This document shows, piece by piece, positions 1 through 6,000 of a DNA stretch of 58,898 nt. Position numbers: made by a program. Within the stretch, counting starts at the first letter, position 1. The number at the start of each line of letters is the position of its first letter. Source of the stretch: an uncultured bacterium (GTDB lineage: Bacteria > Verrucomicrobiota > Verrucomicrobiia > Verrucomicrobiales > DEV007). The DNA is taken from contig CAXBMO010000032.1 in assembly GCA_963977015.1 (NCBI GenBank), positions 1 to 58,898 of the forward strand, written 5' to 3'.

Positions 1-3000
1 AAACAGTCCAGCCAGAAACAGTCCAGCCAGAAACAGTCCAGCCAGAAACAGTCCAGCCAGAAACAGTCCAACCAGAAACAGTCCAACCAGAAATGGGCTG
101 AAAGCCCAACCGCGCAAAGCACAGGGTTTCAACCCTGTGTCAATGAATCCCAAACGGGATGCGGCCTGAATGGCCGCCCGCAGTCGCCCGATCAACCCCA
201 AAGATACCGCTCATCAAAATCGACTTGATACTTCTTCAAGAACTTCAGGTATTCCTCCTGAAAGGTGGTGACCTTGTGATGTTCTTTCTGGTTTCGAAGA
301 TAGCCCATCGCGACGTCAAGATCGGGCGGACTAACGCTGAACCAGCCATACCCCACCTGCCACGCAAACTTCGGACGATCTGAAAAGGTCGAATTGATCC
401 AACGCGACGAGTCGCCTTTCAGTTGGCTCATGAATTCCTGGTCCGCGACCATTTTGGACTCCCTGATCAAGAGGTGGACATGATCCGGCATTCCACCAAT
501 TTCGAGAAGACTCCCTTCCAGCCGTCGGATGATTCCGCCCATGTATTCGTACAACCTGGACTCGATTTCACCAGTAATCATCGGTTCCCGATTCTTCGTG
601 GAGAACACGATGTGTCCATAGGTGCAGTGTAGTGACTGTGGCATGGTTGATGATGATTGGTCGACTGCTGGCGACCTGTCAGGCCGCGATCTTTGCTGAA
701 TCCGATTTCACAGGGTTGAAACCCTGTGCTTTGTGCGGATGGGCTTTCAGCCCATCATTGCCTAACGCTACTTCCTGGTCCCGCAGGATGCAACTGCCTT
801 GGTTTTTGCCGAAAGTAAATGGCGGCGAACCTGTTTACGCAGGCCCGCCGCCGGGGTTGAAGGTTCCGATTAAAGTTCCATCGCTTCGATTTGATGGAGA
901 AGCGCGCTCTTGTCCTTTTCGAGGAACATGAGCGTTTCCATCGTCTTATCCGAAAAGCCTGCGAGCGCGTAAACGCCGCGTTCCGGAAATTGAAGCGATC
1001 CGTAACCAGCCAGATCAAAGCTGTAGACACGAGGACGGTTTCCCGCCTTCTTGACATAAGCTTCGAAGCTTTCGGTTGGCGTATAATATCCCATCCAGCC
1101 CTGCATATCAGAGAGGATAACGACGCGATCGTAAGCCTTCCGAGCCGTTTGGAAGATCGCGTGGAAGTTGGTTCCGGCGAACCGGGCCTTTTCTTCCATG
1201 CGTTGCGCCAGACTCAAGGTGCTATCATCACGGTTGAAGGTCTTGAACTCGGCGATATCGCTGAAGAGCATGAGATCCGCATCGTTGGTCTTGTAAAGGA
1301 CCGATGCAAAGAGCGATCCGATCTTGATCGGATTTCCATGCATGGATCCGGAACTATCCAGCGCGATCAACGTACGACCTTCGAGCACCGGAACATTCTC
1401 CAATGCAAGATCGACAGCCTTACTGAGCGCACGAATCACCTTTTGGCGATTTGGCAAATCAGTCGCCTGTTCCACGGCATCCAGAGCGGTGCGGAAGCGG
1501 AACGGCAGCACGAGCGACTTGCGGATCAACCGCGGATCCTGCAGCAACGCAAGCGCGTCATCGACGACGTCCGGAGACTGTTCGAGGATGTTGCGCAGGT
1601 TGCGAAGCAGCGCGAAGTATCCGATCTTGCGACTACGAATGAGGTCCGCCCAGGCTCCCGCCTTACGACCAGCCTTGTCTTCGGCATTCTCCGCTTGTTG
1701 ACCAGCCTGCGTCAGCTTGGTTTCCCAGGTTTCCGCCGGCTGAAGCGTTCCCGCCATCAACTGCCCCAAAGCTTGGGTGTGCGGAGGGTGAAGCAGGTTC
1801 ACCGCATCCACCAGCTTGAGTTCAGCACCTTCGCGCCGGTACTTGGCCAGTTGGTAGGCATCGAACCGGGTCAGGGCTTGGCCCAATCCCTTCTTGAGAG
1901 AGTTTGGCAAGGGCTTTCCATGGACCGCCATGTGGTAGGCCAGGATTTCGAGAACGTCATCAACGCGGTAGACCACGCGATCGAAGAAGCGACGCGTCCA
2001 ATCGGCACCCTTGACCTGGTGCGCCAGTTCCCCGGCGACCAAGTGGCTGACCGAACGCATCCCTGCTTCACGACGAGCATAAAGCGCCGCCTTCGCGACA
2101 AAAGGCTTGTCGTTGATCTCGCGGATCAGTTCCTGGAGCCGCTTTGCGGAATCACCCGCCTTGCGGTAGTACTGGTTTTCCAGGAAACAGGTGAGGAGCA
2201 TGGTCACCAGTTCGAGCTTGGCGCTCTGGGTGAAGGCCTCGCCACCTGCCAGGTTGATGGTTGTCGATTCTGTTTGCTTTTGTCTTTTCAGATTGAACTT
2301 CATGAGGTGGTCGGACCTCCTTTCTAGTTAGGGTTGTTGGAAAACTCCCTTCGCGAGCAACGAAGGAAGAAGTTGAGAAAGGATCGGAGAGAAAACCGGT
2401 CGGGGTAATAGCTCACCCAATGTGGATGAATTCGTTTAACAGACGAAGGAACCCCAACCTCACTACTCCGAAATGGGTGGAGGGAAAGGTCACTCTGGAG
2501 AATGCCGGAAGGAGACACAATACCGTGCTCTACCAACTGAGCTATCTCCCAAGAACCTTGGGAGAGTGGGACTCGAACCCACGACCACGCGCGTCGAAAG
2601 CGAAGGAACTCCTCGCCTCACTGCCAGAGTGATTTTATTTCCCAGGAAAGAGGTCACGCGAAGAATAGTGAACCGGGCAAAGTTGTCCGGTCCAAAAAGG
2701 CGGACCGGGCAGGAGTTGAACCTACTAATCTGAGCGCGTCAGACGTACACCGAAGTATCCCAGATTCTCGCTATCGCGTGTTTTAAAAAAGGCTGAGCAT
2801 CCGAGCATGGATTCGAACCATGATTCTCGCCTTCAAAGGGCGATGTCCTTCCGTTAGACGACTCGGATGAAAGAAGAAAAATCGGTCTGGAAGGACTTGC
2901 ACCCTCAACCTGCCGGGTAAGAACCGGATGCTCTCCTAACTTGAGCTACAGACCGTTGTCGTAGCCACGATTGGTAATCGTGGTATGAATTCGAGTGCCA

Positions 3001-6000
3001 CTCGAATCTACAAAGGCGGAGCTTTGAGGACTTGCACCCCATGCCTCGTTTTCGCGAGGCACCATTCGTTTAGCAAACGACTCCGACACGCTTGTTCGGT
3101 TAAAACTCCAATCGAAATACCAAGTGCCCGTAGCAGGATTTGCACCTGCACTGAACCGCTTTTGAGTCGGCTGCCTCTGCTGTTGGGCTATACGGGCGTT
3201 TCGTTGCAAAGAAGTGCTCACGGAAGGATTCGCACCTTCAACTCCTCGGTTTTAAGTCGAGTGCCTCTGCTCTTGGGCCACGTGAGCCTGCTCATTCGTC
3301 GACCCGGTGGGAATCGCACCCACGTCCTCTCGCTTATAAGGCGAGCGCTCTCACTGCGCCTGAGCTACGGGTCAAAAGGTAGAACGGTACCCACGACAGG
3401 ATTTGCACCTGCAACCTTCCGCTTCTAAAACGGACGCCTCTGCTATTGGGCTACGTGGGCCAATGTCAATTTGATGAACGTTCCACCGGTCGGTGTCGCA
3501 CCGACATGGTCTCCTTTACGAGAGGAGTGCATTGCTGACTTCTGCCACGGTGGATAAATGGAGTTTGTAGGCACTCCCGGTAGGACTCGAACCTACAACC
3601 TGATGCTTCGAAGGCACCCGCTCTTCCAATTGAGCTACAGGAGCGAAAAGAAATCTAATCAATACGGGATGGAGGATTCGAACCCCTCGACAGCCAACCC
3701 ACAGTTTATGGTCGACACGTTAGAAGCATGTGGTGGGAACATCCCGCGTAGCCACGACTGGTAGTCGTGGTTTGAAATTCGAGTCCCACTCGAATCTACG
3801 ACTAAAAAAATAGGGGCTGAAGGTAACGCTCCCTCGTCTCCTGTGTGTAAAACAGGCGTCCTACTATTGAACGAAGCCCCCATCACTATGATCATGTGAG
3901 GAAGTATCCCGGGAGGGATTTGCACCCCCAACCTCTGCGCACTCAACACAGCGCCTCTGCTGATTGGGCTACCGGGACATTGGGGCCAACGGCGAGTCTC
4001 TCACTCGCATCTTCCGACTTACAAGGTCGGCGCACTTCTCTGCCACGCTGGCGTCTCAAAAGAAAGCGGTGCGCCGTGCCGGTGCTGCCCCGGCTCCTCC
4101 TGTTTGGAAGACAGACGTCCTAGCTGGTAGACGAACAGCGCTTCAAGGTGAAAGAATGCCCGTGCGGGAATCGCACCCGCCACACTCTGGGTTGCAACCA
4201 GGCCGGTTCACTAGCTCCGGTCACGGGCGTCTTCCGAGAAAGGGTTGATCGACGGGATTTGCACCCGCACCGCAACCTTCACAGGGTCGAATGCTAACAT
4301 TTACACTACGATCAACATCTCTGGATTCAATACCACTACCAAGAGTCCCCCCGGTGGGTAACGCTCCCACTTCTGCGGTTTAAAAGACCGCTGCATCACT
4401 TTAATGCTTCGAGGGAAGAAGTGATGGATTTCTACCTATCCCCGCCAGGATTTGCACCTGATCCGACGCCTTCGCACGACGCCATGCTTCTCTTACACTA
4501 CAGGGACAACTCCATTCGCTACCGCCAAAACGCCTCATGCCGGTTACGCTCCGACTCAACCTGTTCGACAGACAGGCAGGCTACTATTACATCAATGAGG
4601 CTTGTTGAAGAAGTGGCTGGCTCCGGAATTGCACCGGGCTCTCGTCGCCTTCAACGACACGCTAATCTGTCTCAGCTATCCAGCCTTTGAATTCCCGAAA
4701 TCGTCCTGGATGGTAACGCTCCACCGTCTACCGGTTATCAACCGGTTGCTCTGCTTTTGAGCTACAGGACGCGAAAGAAAGGCACCTCCGCTTGGACTCG
4801 AACCAAGCTCGCGAGGCTTAACAGGCCTGCTGCACACCCGGTGCATTCGAAGGTCAAAGAAGACTCGGGGGCGGGAATCGAACCCGCGTGAAAGGCGGCT
4901 TATGAGGCCCCTTCGAGACGCCAACGCTCTCCCCGAAGAATGGAAATGTTCGAACCAAGATACGGGCCACGGAGGTCCTGCCCCCCAAACGCAGGACTAC
5001 TGCGTTCAATCCGTTTTCAAGACGGTTCCGGCACGCTTGTCCGGTTCGGGACCCATGTCTCTTTGGTTGTGAAAGGTAGGTCCTGGTGGAATCGCACCAC
5101 GCGTCGACTTTCGGCTTCTTTTATGACAACGGTTTTACAGACCGCCAGCCGAGGCAGGACCTATGTGAAAGAAATTGGCAAGGCGTGGGGGAATTGAACC
5201 CGCCGTTCCCAGACTGAAAACCTGGTGTCCTAGCCATTAGACGAACGCCTCATTTGGAAAAATGGAAATGGGAGGTCCTGGTAACGCTCCAGGCATCCAG
5301 GGTTATGAGCCCCGGGGCAGAACTTTCTGACCTCCAATCTGCTGATTGCGTCGCGGTGGTAGGACTCGCACCTACTTCCTGAGACTTCCAAGGTCCCTAT
5401 CTCGACTACTTCGACCTCACCGCGAAAACTGGTATGGAGACACTCGGTAACGCTCCGAGTCCTGCTGCTTGCAAGGCAGCCGTGCTATCTTTTATCACTA
5501 TGCCCCCAAAGAATGGCAGACTGCGAGAGAATCGAACTCTCTAAGCGCAAGGTTTGGAATCTTGCCGCGACACCCACTCGCCGACAGTCTGCATTGATAC
5601 TTCTTTCCACAATTCTCTGAAGCATGAAGGGAACTTCCAAGCCTGACGATTCATCACGGATTCTTCACGCGTGAACCCATGTGATTTAGAAGCGGCATGC
5701 TGTTGAGCGCGCCGCCGTTTCAATATTTGGATTTGGGTTCCGGGAAGAGGAAGGATGGAATCGAACTGATGATCCGTTCTACCTTCGCTTCAGAGAAAGA
5801 CGAACACCGTTACCGATCGTTACTCGGTAGCCGCAGGTTTTCACAGACGGACGTTTCGGTGTCTAACAGGCACACCTCCCTTACATAGAAGCCTCTTGGG
5901 TTGCCATTCCCAAGAGACAAACACTTTCCGTAACACGATTCGAAAATGGTGTGATCCGGTTGACCAAGTTGAAGACTTGTATAAATTAGAAACTTGTAGG

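Follow-up and report, generated by a model that had tools for sequence, protein, structure and literature searches.

The minus strand between positions 5884 and 821 of the window (the whole 58,898-nucleotide stretch of DNA that was analysed, from an uncultured member of the Verrucomicrobiota) is best explained as a leader-headed RNA operon, in which an HNH-linked L-array carries an inserted Ro60/Y-RNA module and is linked to RNA repair, a reading to which we assign a probability of roughly 55%. The operon would run from a 93-nt leader through about 27 supernumerary tRNAs and three Y RNAs, the middle one of YrlA type, to rsr and a strong hairpin. The anatomy, conservation, covariation and homology of the locus were all observed directly (Table 1), and, if the reading is true, the locus ties long accessory tRNA arrays to the repair of RNA damage.

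Table 1. Features of the locus and its 3' side, in order of transcription of the minus strand.
Feature	Position	Strand	Basis or remark
Leader RNA motif, 93 nt, 5' edge of array	5792-5884	minus	alignment, covariation, model R1
Accessory tRNA array, L-array type	2797-5590	minus	about 27 genes (ARAGORN, Rfam)
tRNA Ala	5434-5508	minus	lower threshold or Rfam (Rfam match 5435-5507)
tRNA Pro	5350-5419	minus	lower threshold or Rfam (Rfam match 5351-5424)
Probable long-arm tRNA	5075-5162	minus	lower threshold or Rfam
tRNA Phe	4613-4685	minus	lower threshold or Rfam
tRNA Arg-gcg	4436-4508	minus	lower threshold or Rfam (Rfam match 4437-4507)
tRNA Lys-ttt	4345-4416	minus	lower threshold or Rfam
tRNA Cys	4154-4230	minus	Rfam match 4156-4230 as tRNA-Sec, sub-threshold
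tRNA Val	3810-3882	minus	lower threshold or Rfam (Rfam match 3811-3881)
tRNA Ser-gct	3015-3109	minus	lower threshold or Rfam
Y-RNA module 1	2655-2786	minus	motif scan; ends set by eye
YrlA-type Y RNA	2487-2634	minus	Rfam RF02553, alignment, fold
Y-RNA module 3, YrlB-like	2372-2474	minus	motif scan, fold
rsr, Ro60 orthologue, 477 aa	870-2303	minus	Pfam, PDB matches
Terminator-like hairpin, 13 pairs	821-852	minus	18 nt past rsr stop codon
IS200-like Y1 transposase	192-644	minus	Pfam Y1_Tnp, E 9.2e-26

ARAGORN at its default settings found 18 tRNA genes in the array, all on the minus strand (Trp, two Met, Glu, Asn, Ile-gat, Asp, His, two Thr, four Leu, Arg-tcg, Ile-tat, Lys-ctt and Gln), Rfam gave five tRNA-type matches beyond these, and ARAGORN with -ps90 over the window returned 25 tRNAs and one YrlA fragment; by chance about 0.04 tRNA per 6 kb would be expected. 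The genome has 59 ARAGORN tRNAs in total, and since the 41 outside the array contig serve all 20 amino acids, the array is supernumerary. An earlier note on this DNA had described a minus-strand array of 18-25 divergent tRNA genes, followed by a YrlA-type Y RNA and the TROVE/Ro60 gene rsr, and each of these three elements was borne out.

The array tRNAs are unusual at the elbow. The near-universal G18/U55 pair was absent from 218 of 359 array tRNAs (196 of the TGC and 22 of the AGC class), with a change of G18 to A covarying with one of U55 to G, and the 22 also swap positions 54 and 58. A D-loop GG was present in 121 of 122 TTC tRNAs, compared with 13/196 TGC and 2/22 AGC members; in the window about seven T-loops are canonical TTC, and the others are TGC or AGCGTWA without the D-loop GG. 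The long arm was missing from 54 of 61 array Leu genes (the four in the window measure 74-75 nt, whereas housekeeping Leu genes measure 82-85 nt), and many members scored low in both ARAGORN and Rfam. Such features would suit RNAs that are mainly not translation tRNAs, i.e., nuclease decoys or sponges, or substrates or partners of Ro60, which their altered elbows exclude from normal tRNA pathways, and a sponge role has been suggested for the Anabaena array (Santamaria-Gomez et al. 2021, PMC8421152). We consider this unlikely, as the array set spans nearly all amino acids and retains its anticodon loops (in the TGC class, U33 in 180/196 and R37 in 194/196) and aminoacylation identity elements, with discriminators that match bacterial rules (Leu A73 in 57/61, Cys U73 in 11/11, Trp G73 in 8/8, Pro A73 in 10/10) and Ala G3:U70 kept in 3/3. 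Further arguments against it are that each isoacceptor mostly keeps one elbow type from locus to locus (Cys 11/11 TGC; Gln 30 TGC vs 3 TTC), that one array of the elbow-variant type contains a gene for an EF-Tu paralogue, and that the tRNAs of the homologous Nostoc array, whose Leu genes are equally short, are charged and polysome-associated, 23 of the 26 tRNAs of the Anabaena/Nostoc array being aminoacylated according to the same paper (PMC8421152). It is far less probable still that the array is the remains of a transferred tRNA cluster in decay, its members pseudogenes and their odd features the product of drift: low model scores for some members, REP insertions within the window array and the variable array size among relatives would fit, but the D-loop and T-loop changes covary tightly, stems remain paired with identity elements maintained, and one variant class is common to three families.

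Upstream of rsr the Y-RNA modules number three, not one. For the middle one, the RF02553 match at 2524-2589 (39.6 bits, E 4.5e-6) fell below the gathering score of 69; its architecture is that of a terminal stem around a permuted tRNA-like domain (T-arm, closed acceptor hairpin, D-arm), 16 of 22 predicted pairs in a 30-sequence alignment had compensatory changes, the core recurred in 27 of 29 own-family loci, and the window copy folded with a z-score of -3.7. Module 1 has a Ro60-binding-type 5' motif (AGCGAG..GGGATACTTCG) and a terminal stem, with two further hairpins, one internal and T-arm-like and one closed (fold z -1.8 for the partial segment 2672-2786, with the 3' end left out), while module 3 has the 5' and 3' stem motifs of YrlA without the tRNA-like domain (z -2.9; 1 of 200 shuffles as stable). 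At least two Y-RNA motifs lay within 1.3 kb upstream of rsr in 34 of 41 loci, at a density of 2.24 per kb, compared with 0.045 per kb for the other strand. Rsr itself combines a TROVE domain (Pfam E 6.2e-21) with a vWA domain that has a DSSGS MIDAS-type motif, although the vWA_Ro60 score of 20.7 bits is below the cutoff of 27.7. It matched solved TROVE proteins over its full length (9l5y and 9kop, E 5e-23; 2nvo, E 3e-7) and, of 8000 candidates scored, 4536 were homologous at E up to 1e-40.

Apart from tRNA arms and a weak 6-pair hairpin in rsr (2100-2085), there was no terminator-like site in the window from 5590 to 870. A hairpin similar to the one past rsr was found at most 250 nt from the rsr stop in 16 of the 31 loci processed, among which the picture of no terminator within the block and a hairpin past rsr holds partly. 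The IS200-like gene, probably a REP-associated RAYT (the genome has dispersed GTAG-type palindromes), occupies the position that HNH has in relatives and marks the limit of the locus short of the contig end. HNH survives in the genome as a fragment on another contig (C19:52-249; tblastn, C19:55-249), RtcB stands alone on contig C2, unlinked to the rsr locus, and searches of the genome for the Band-7 and RlaP genes of this locus class found neither. In relatives, rsr is followed by HNH, a tRNA-like gene, SPFH/Band-7 and RlaP, or by RtcB; the tRNA-like gene lies just upstream of Band-7, and RtcB or an RNA ligase is also carried.

At the other end of the array, an alignment of the window with a related locus (L001), followed by blastn in 27 further loci, revealed the leader, made up of two hairpins, P1 and the covarying P3, together with invariant single-stranded blocks and a 3' end rich in U. 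In alignments A3 and A4, 7 of 21 pairs had compensatory changes, and 0 of 500 shuffles matched the observed values. In 27 loci it lay on the same strand as, and upstream of, every array tRNA, at any array size from 1 to 25 tRNAs and whether rsr was present or absent. Model R1 matched 53 of 134 family genomes, 51 of which hold one copy only, and the leader also precedes arrays of the sister family (f7) and of family f3; no match to it turned up in the 12 HNH loci without tRNAs, and R1 gave a match to the Nostoc locus at noise level only. An Rfam search at E up to 10 had no match, and, judged by its sequence, the leader is a conserved, previously undescribed RNA. Its place at the 5' edge of the arrays lends independent support to array, YrlA and rsr being one unit. 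Given the U-rich end and a distance of 140-2300 nt to the first tRNA across loci, the leader could also be a small RNA in its own right, ending at a terminator of its own. A sigma-54 promoter was looked for at the locus and not found, nor was there a minus-strand sigma-70-like site in the array or upstream of it, all three reported minus-strand sites falling at 591-1111.

The strand order was strongly kept. Among 23 full-length own-family rsr loci with at least 2 kb upstream, 22 had at least one, 19 at least five and 14 at least ten same-strand tRNAs within 6 kb of rsr; the corresponding counts in the sister family were 4/4, 3/4 and 2/4, and across 44 loci 368 same-strand tRNAs stood against a single opposite-strand one. 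The order array-YrlA-rsr on one strand, as the earlier note had it, thus holds in two families despite Rsr being only about 55% identical between them, and HNH often follows rsr, as also claimed (23/27 own-family and 4/4 sister-family loci). RtcB, said to be often downstream, was there in 0/27 own-family loci and in 4/4 sister-family loci only. Conservation across Verrucomicrobiota likewise shrinks to the two families and one Rsr clade: 401 evenly sampled phylum genomes gave 10 with any TROVE match, five of them orthologues, and 35 of 134 family genomes had an Rsr match. The 70-80 phylum loci counted in the earlier note were not reproduced from this sample. The claim that the locus is one unit is thus only partly supported: it keeps its strand order and gains the leader, but arrays and HNH occur without rsr and RtcB is adjacent in the sister family only.

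A lesser but real possibility is that array and HNH form a selfish or mobile cassette beside which rsr and the Y RNAs landed once in an ancestor, functionally uncoupled, their order persisting by descent and HNH-driven co-mobilisation. The Verrucomicrobiota loci form one Rsr clade in a quick tree, so the shared order may be a single inherited arrangement. Arrays and HNH are common in the absence of rsr, and arrays can do without it: of 40 HNH loci that lack rsr, 12 carried four or more same-strand tRNAs in an array. Flanking genes vary from locus to locus, the window copy is invaded by IS200/RAYT and REP-like elements, nine viral Rsr homologues from this subfamily (44-52% identity) are without arrays, and horizontal transfer, possibly via HNH homing, is the reported means of L-array spread (PMC8421152). 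Also counting against the preferred operon reading, some rsr loci have few tRNAs (one each in L003 and L044, none in L038), and cargo genes split some arrays. Against such hitch-hiking, the order survives about 45% Rsr divergence; in the sister family one to four more tRNAs lie downstream of rsr, which places it inside the array; leader and HNH always enclose the Y RNAs and rsr on the same strand; and locus and flanks have equal GC content. Of four Saprospiraceae loci, which fall on the tree's other main branch, two likewise have an array ahead of rsr, and TROVE genes occur in archaeal tRNA clusters (PMC6333295).

Under the preferred reading of a repair-linked operon, co-transcription, induction, charging and a division of labour within the locus are what we infer. 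Transcription would start upstream of the leader, which may act as an attenuator, riboswitch or protein-binding switch in response to translational stress or to stress from RNA damage. RNase P and RNase Z would process the long precursor to tRNAs and Y RNAs, the tRNA-like domain of YrlA being a likely target of the same enzymes. The array tRNAs, with their A18/G55 elbow, would be chargeable spares that sustain translation or absorb tRNA-cutting nucleases once the housekeeping tRNAs are damaged, while Rsr and the Y RNAs would steer RNAs that are damaged or misfolded towards decay or repair.

Several known systems resemble parts of the locus. Burroughs and Aravind reportedly described, in 2016, RNA-repair systems with Rot/TROVE-YRNA modules and with SPFH/Band-7 and tRNA-like RNA modules, and are said not to have described arrays of tens of tRNA genes in them; the relatives here similarly have TROVE with Y RNAs, Band-7 with a tRNA-like gene, and also RlaP nucleotidyltransferase, RtcB or RNA ligase. 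Like the rsr-yrlBA-rtcBA operon of Salmonella Typhimurium, the locus has a Ro60 orthologue and at least two adjacent same-strand Y RNAs, one a YrlA-type tRNA mimic, with RtcB downstream in sister-family relatives. Unlike that operon, the locus in its own genome is without RtcB, RtcA, RtcR and any sigma-54 promoter that could be found, and its Y RNAs lie upstream of rsr with a large tRNA array before them. Loci of this kind may have been filtered from the survey of Chen et al. 2014 (PMC4201824), in which YrlA candidates overlapping tandem tRNA genes were thrown out.

The earlier note's claim that no paper joins Rsr or YrlA with tRNA arrays does not hold in spirit, since two already come close (PMC6333295, PMC8421152). 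Morgado and Vicente 2019 (PMC6333295) reported that 20 of 29 tRNA gene clusters in archaea contain a TROVE gene, there combined, as here, with HNH and mobile-element genes in a large tRNA cluster; those clusters are archaeal, mostly from haloarchaea, and the accessible part of that paper holds no analysis of Y RNAs, leader or strand order. The TROVE protein of a Halogranum virus shows 30.5% identity to Rsr. Santamaria-Gomez et al. (PMC8421152) described an Anabaena L-array induced by translational stress and co-regulated with rtcB, and tied bacterial L-arrays, including those of Verrucomicrobia, to HNH and rtcB co-regulation; rtcB is likewise near the locus in relatives of the window genome. 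A close counterpart is the trn L-array of Nostoc PCC 7120, which also has more than 20 tightly spaced, same-strand, supernumerary tRNA genes adjoining a homologous HNH (31% identity between the relatives' HNH and that of pCC7120delta, E 1e-12, 88% coverage), a patchy distribution and short class-I-like tRNA-Leu genes (4/4 in Nostoc, and 2/3 in a Mycolicibacterium plasmid array). There the HNH directly precedes the 24-tRNA array, whereas here it is downstream, with the Ro60/Y-RNA module inserted; the A18/G55 elbow, found in most tRNAs here, occurs in 1 of 24 in Nostoc; and a lineage-specific leader RNA stands in place of the direct-repeat promoter described for Anabaena (PMC8421152). Taken together, the leader, the Y RNAs, the elbow change and the Nostoc-like HNH point to a horizontally spread L-array into which, in one Verrucomicrobiota lineage, a Ro60/Y-RNA module would have been inserted between array and HNH.

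The earlier note had placed a tRNA gene array, a YrlA-type Y RNA and the Ro60 gene rsr on one strand, and all three were indeed found on the minus strand of the window, among the features collected in the table below. How many genes the array holds varies with the tool: ARAGORN called 18 at its default setting and 25, plus a piece of YrlA, with -ps90; Rfam contributed four further matches above threshold and a tRNA-Sec-like match under it; and ARAGORN -ps75, a setting that also yields clearly spurious opposite-strand calls, added a Pro gene and an 88-nt long-arm candidate. The array is taken to comprise about 27 genes, and 18-27 same-strand genes lie inside 2.8 kb. 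It is supernumerary, since 41 of the 59 ARAGORN tRNAs of the genome lie outside the window contig and cover all 20 amino acids, and it has the gene layout of a long accessory tRNA operon, or L-array, i.e., some 20 or more closely spaced tRNA genes of the same orientation beyond a full housekeeping set. All four of its Leu genes are shorter than 80 nt, as are 54 of 61 in relatives, and Leu genes are long in those arrays of the sister family that have no rsr. Pairwise identities of the array tRNAs to the Nostoc array or to the genome's own housekeeping tRNAs were 51-74% and did not discriminate their origin. The array also includes a tRNA-Ile whose anticodon, UAU, is uncommon for bacteria, and the anticodons Lys CUU, Leu GAG, Arg UCG and Arg GCG, which the housekeeping set does not have. 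An element of about 95 nt within it, with a perfect 7-bp acceptor-like stem, a canonical T-arm and a long irregular interior carrying a UCU anticodon-like loop, may be a tRNA that holds an intron or has been disrupted.

Features of the window in order from the start of the array region to the contig end
Feature	Position	Strand	Basis
63-aa ORF	6275-6466	minus	no Pfam match
Terminator-like hairpin with the ORF	~6210-6245		
Leader RNA motif	5884-5792	minus	93 nt, comparative alignment
tRNA array, 18 genes	2797-5590	minus	ARAGORN, default setting
Further tRNA matches	3811-3881, 4437-4507, 5351-5424, 5435-5507		Rfam, above threshold
Pro tRNA	5350-5419		ARAGORN -ps75
Long-arm candidate, 88 nt	5075-5162		ARAGORN -ps75
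tRNA-Sec-like match	4156-4230		Rfam, under threshold
55-nt repeat, two copies	3802-3745, 3018-2960	minus	dispersed palindrome
tRNA-like element	~3650-3745	minus	called by no tool
tRNA-Ile (UAU)	3298-3374	minus	
Y-RNA module 1	about 2786-2655	minus	motif scan
YrlA	2634-2487	minus	fold z-score -3.7 (single sequence)
RF02553 (YrlA) match	2524-2589		39.6 bits (gathering score 69)
YrlB-like RNA	2474-2372	minus	fold z-score -2.9 (single sequence)
rsr	870-2303	minus	TROVE E 6.2e-21
Weak 6-pair hairpin in rsr	2100-2085	minus	terminator-like
13-pair hairpin after rsr	852-821	minus	
IS200-like Y1 transposase	192-644		between rsr and contig end
Acido-Lenti-1 match	94-139		Rfam, 31.1 bits (gathering score 37)
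Tandem 15-nt repeat, CTGGACTGTTTCTGG type	1-90		

Alignment of the window with its closest relative revealed a nearly invariant block in an otherwise diverged region upstream of the array, and its core was matched by blastn in 27 further loci. This leader consists of a hairpin P1, the invariant stretches GAAACGUCCG and GAAAACCUGCGGC, a hairpin P3 and a U-rich end. P3 covaries at all six of its pairs, and in the trimmed alignment 96.3% of cells were paired with double changes at 7 of 21 pairs, values that were reached by none of 500 shuffles and by no slid register; of the four helices, two are invariant and so offer no covariation. In 27 loci the leader shares the strand of the array and precedes all of its tRNAs, and in 25 of these there is no same-strand tRNA within 3 kb upstream of it; what follows is 1-25 tRNAs and then rsr and/or HNH. 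A covariance model of the leader (R1) found it in 53 of 134 family genomes, in 51 of them as a single copy, and also ahead of arrays in another family of the phylum (52-63 bits) and in the sister family, where the scores ranged from 35 bits (L098; L numbers denote the fetched loci of relatives) through 20-25 bits (L010-L013) to 17-18 bits (L100 and L101, E 0.025-0.05). The leader was not found in 12 HNH loci of the family that have no tRNAs; R1 gave only noise-level scores (E 0.8-0.9) in the Saprospiraceae locus L008 and the Nostoc array, and no match in the viral and Mycolicibacterium loci. Rfam left the motif unmatched at E up to 10; conserved, structured and 93 nt long, the leader is a candidate for a new attenuator or riboswitch. 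Its constant place is the strongest comparative argument for a single unit of leader, tRNAs, Y RNAs and rsr, and could equally reflect a separate small RNA that always sits at that place. Further upstream, the 63-aa ORF has a promoter-like TTGACA-N17-TAAGGT ahead of it, and its 3' part is conserved in the relative L001 along with the terminator-like hairpin.

The product of rsr aligned end to end with TROVE proteins of solved structure, 9l5y among them, with the DSSGS metal-site motif in register, and thus has the order expected of Ro60/Rsr, TROVE followed by a vWA domain with its MIDAS motif; the vWA_Ro60 match itself was weak (20.7 bits, under the cutoff). Adjacent to the gene, as for other Ro60/Rsr, are Y RNA genes, in three modules between 2786 and 2372. 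The Rfam match to YrlA falls short of the gathering score and covers only model positions 24-84. The RNA has the YrlA architecture, a terminal stem and a permuted tRNA-like domain of T-arm, closed acceptor stem and D-arm, less than 4 kb from rsr (184 nt upstream), and a scan for T-arm, closed hairpin and D-arm located such a core upstream of rsr in most relatives, including 27 of 29 loci of the own family, with a closing hairpin whose sequence varies between loci. The covariation claimed for YrlA in the earlier note was seen again in an alignment of 30 sequences, where four predicted helices hold 22 pairs with compensatory changes at 16. A recurrent 5' motif of the Y-RNA stem, AGTGAGG, 5-10 nt, TWCYTCG, occurred in at least two copies within 1.3 kb upstream of rsr in 34 of 41 loci, its 116 matches amounting to 2.24 per kb versus 0.045 per kb on the opposite strand. 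Judged by this comparative record, YrlA is real, and the predicted Y RNAs of the window number three.

Rsr was searched in 401 evenly drawn genomes of the phylum, of which 10 matched, and in 134 of the family, of which 35 did. In the own family, 23 full-length rsr loci had 2 kb or more of upstream sequence, and 22, 19 and 14 of them carried at least 1, 5 and 10 same-strand tRNAs within 6 kb; of four such loci in the sister family, 4, 3 and 2 did. Downstream of rsr, in loci with at least 2 kb of sequence there, the own family (27 loci) had HNH in 23, Band-7 in 14, RlaP in 6 and RtcB in none, and the sister family (four loci) had HNH and RtcB in all four and Band-7 and RlaP in none. In the sister family tRNAs also follow rsr (3 or 4 in L010-L012, 1 in L013), which is therefore embedded in the array. 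The tRNAs upstream and the HNH downstream of rsr bore out the earlier note, and its RtcB neighbour was confined to the sister family; its statement that the order is conserved across Verrucomicrobiota holds for these two families, within one Rsr clade, with 10 Rsr matches in 401 phylum genomes. In a quick Rsr tree all Verrucomicrobiota fell into that clade and Saprospiraceae plus viruses into the other. Distant TROVE paralogues (26-33% identity) had no arrays, and Saprospiraceae (Bacteroidota) loci, whose Rsr is 45-50% identical, had arrays in two of four, of 5 and 22 tRNAs. On an Aureispira contig (L009, 6842-10548), tblastn Rsr matches exceed two gene lengths, which suggests two predicted tandem rsr copies after an array of 22-24 tRNAs with canonical elbows. 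A phage origin of the array-rsr linkage was also considered and rejected, as the nine viral Rsr homologues (a 635-kb phage record and 8 IMG/VR contigs; 44-52% identity) are close and none has an array.

Members of the HNH family, those of a second paralogue class among them, were detected at E up to 1e-15 in 116 of the 134 family genomes, and also in several other families of the phylum. Among 40 HNH loci without rsr in the fetched stretch, 12 had at least four same-strand tRNAs upstream (L066, L068, L069, L070, L073, L088, L092, L094 and L098-L101), four had one (L061-L063 and L097) and the remainder none. From the loci compared, rsr is best described as an optional insert. We favor, at odds only slightly better than even (roughly 55%), a reading in which the locus is an L-array operon that took in a Ro60/Y-RNA module, stands under a lineage-specific leader and probably helps the cell to cope with translational stress or damaged tRNAs. 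The main rival, that the order is inherited or hitch-hiking synteny with no functional coupling, is in our view less likely. Horizontal spread of the arrays would be consistent with their patchiness within the family and with flanking genes that differ between loci; the GC content of the locus, however, equals that of its flanks, and descent would fit the Rsr tree as well. Small FHA-domain genes, in pairs and on the strand of the array, are repeatedly seen near array starts (L024, L026, L027, L031), as are GNAT genes (Acetyltransf_3, RimJ-like) within or behind the unit (L002, L033, L042, L096, L097).

The tRNAs themselves are odd. When 359 ARAGORN array tRNAs from 36 loci were classed by T-loop positions 54-56 and the presence of the D-loop GG, 196 had TGC (GG in 13), 122 had TTC (GG in 121), 22 had AGC (GG in 2) and 19 had other loops (GG in 5), whereas the 41 housekeeping tRNAs were all TTC with GG. 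The elbow of canonical elongators, G18-G19 with T54-Psi55-C56, is hence general in the housekeeping set and, with TTC in only 122 of 359, not in the arrays. The D-loop change is G18 to A (e.g., caattGGcaga in Nostoc vs caattAGcaga here), and, with the TGC T-loop, the G18-U55 tertiary pair is therefore replaced by A18-G55; in the AGCGTWA class U54-A58 is additionally swapped for A54-U58. The variant elbow occurs in arrays of the own, the sister and a third Verrucomicrobiota family, and elsewhere in 1 of 24 Nostoc, 0 of 27 Mycolicibacterium and 0 of 30 Saprospiraceae array tRNAs. The anticodon side is conventional, with 7-nt loops having U33 in 180 and R37 in 194 of the 196 TGC-class tRNAs, and isotype identity elements in place: discriminators follow bacterial rules for Leu (A73, 57/61), Cys (U73, 11/11), Trp (G73, 8/8), Pro (A73, 10/10), Ile (A73, 22/24) and Lys (A73, 15/16), and G3:U70 is present in 3/3 Ala; His G-1 with C73 was seen in only 9/26 by a crude test. 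CCA is gene-encoded in 165 of 359. From their sequences, then, the array tRNAs look odd yet functional. In the same genus, an EF-Tu paralogue (L068:10715-11899, genome G526; Pfam GTP_EFTU plus domains 2 and 3) lies inside a TGC-elbow array just upstream of HNH and is 66% identical to the housekeeping EF-Tu of the genome studied here, which has no such paralogue.

Toxins that cut the T-loop exist; one of them, a Burkholderia CdiA-CT, is said to cut between T54 and Psi55. The altered elbow could protect from T-loop-cutting enzymes. A wider joint reading, which we offer tentatively and consider improbable as a whole, is that such arrays give Verrucomicrobiota a second, structurally distinct, chargeable pool of A18-G55 tRNAs, switched by the leader and policed by Ro60 and Y RNAs. 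The recoding of G18-Psi55 to A18-G55, and in some of U54-A58 to A54-U58, would let the pool escape the usual elbow modifications and the nucleases or factors that read the canonical T-loop; the riboswitch-like leader would switch it on as a block; Ro60 and several Y RNAs would be made together with it; and YrlA may itself be array-born, from a circular permutation that spanned the junction between neighbouring tandem tRNA genes, two in number, of such an array. The locus bears on the purpose of long accessory tRNA arrays and on the targets of bacterial Ro60/Y RNPs, as its fixed order of leader, spare tRNAs, Y RNAs and Ro60 is a concrete, testable link, proposed here as the joint deployment, against tRNA damage, of RNA quality control and of tRNAs acting as spares or decoys. 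A large, natural, covarying A18/G55 set could also reveal why tRNAs need the universal G18-Psi55 contact, and could be used as a scaffold for orthogonal tRNAs.

Terminator-like sites on the minus strand between 5590 and 870 are two tRNA arms and the weak hairpin in rsr. Across 31 loci scanned, 19 had no terminator-like site from the first array tRNA to the rsr stop, and 16 had one within 250 nt after rsr. The three minus-strand sites given by a sigma-70 scan all lie at 591-1111, with none in the array or ahead of it; no convincing sigma-54 site was found upstream of arrays. HNH survives in the genome as a fragment at C19:52-249 and, separately, as a full-length second member of the array-associated family at C10:195333-195905 (C10 and C19 are other contigs), whose neighbours are unrelated genes (a sulfatase, DUF4407 proteins) and which has neither a tRNA nor the leader nor Band-7 close by. 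Band-7 and RlaP were not found in the genome with the queries used. Between HNH and Band-7 in about seven loci (including L025, L029, L034 and L040) is a tRNA-like gene, just upstream of SPFH/Band-7, whose acceptor stem is weak; it is probably the Band-7-associated tRNA-like RNA reportedly described by Burroughs and Aravind 2016. The 55-nt repeat of the array was tried as an armless tRNA or small RNA and rejected: it is dispersed in the genome and absent from relatives, and so not part of the system. It is a GTAG-headed palindrome of GTAGATTCGA(C/G)TGGCAGTCGAAT type, often paired, that looks like a REP/BIME element and has inserted twice into the array, and the Y1 transposase, which has inverted hairpins on its flanks, may be its RAYT. 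The assembly break at the contig start is probably due to the tandem repeat region there.

The locus differs from the rsr-yrlBA-rtcBA operon, in which RtcB (with RtcA) is part of the operon and control is by RtcR and sigma-54; RtcB is unlinked in this genome. In 2016 Burroughs and Aravind reportedly described Y RNAs alongside TROVE, and tRNA-like modules alongside Band-7. As for novelty, literature searches found no paper joining 'tRNA array' with 'Ro60', in line with the earlier note, and none treating G55, A18, tRNA, T-loop and D-loop together; for Verrucomicrobi and Ro60, among the matches listed, the titles were those of microbiome or lupus reviews. Within the searches made, the leader-array-Y RNAs-rsr bacterial operon, the leader motif, multiple Y RNAs in an array setting and the A18/G55 tRNA class were not found in the literature. 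The more general idea, tRNA clusters with TROVE or RNA-repair genes, is already in print, in PMC6333295, PMC8421152 and others, which narrows the earlier note's claim: PMC6333295 reports that 20 of 29 tRNA gene clusters in archaea include a TROVE gene, and this paper and its preprint were the only records found for 'tRNA gene cluster' with 'TROVE'. Chen et al. 2014 (PMC4201824) discarded YrlA candidates overlapping tandem tRNA genes.

The nearest known system is the L-array. PMC8421152 defines these arrays, lists Verrucomicrobia among their phyla, names HNH as a conserved neighbor, places a co-regulated rtcB nearby and describes an array induced by translational stress, with 23 of 26 tRNAs charged. 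The relatives' HNH matches plasmid HNH genes of Nostoc (E 1e-12), Acaryochloris, Mycolicibacterium and others, and in Nostoc PCC 7120 the HNH gene directly precedes a same-strand array of 24 tRNAs, the trn operon of that paper. Short Leu tRNAs are likewise common to the window and known L-arrays, with 4/4 under 80 nt in Nostoc and 2/3 on the Mycolicibacterium plasmid; those of L052 (Nostoc pCC7120delta) and L053 (Mycolicibacterium plasmid), at 75-78 nt, have no long variable arm, and a class-I-like tRNA-Leu may be a general L-array hallmark. Because of the homology of the relatives' HNH to that of the Nostoc array and the shared short Leu genes, the locus can be placed as a probable relative of the L-arrays.
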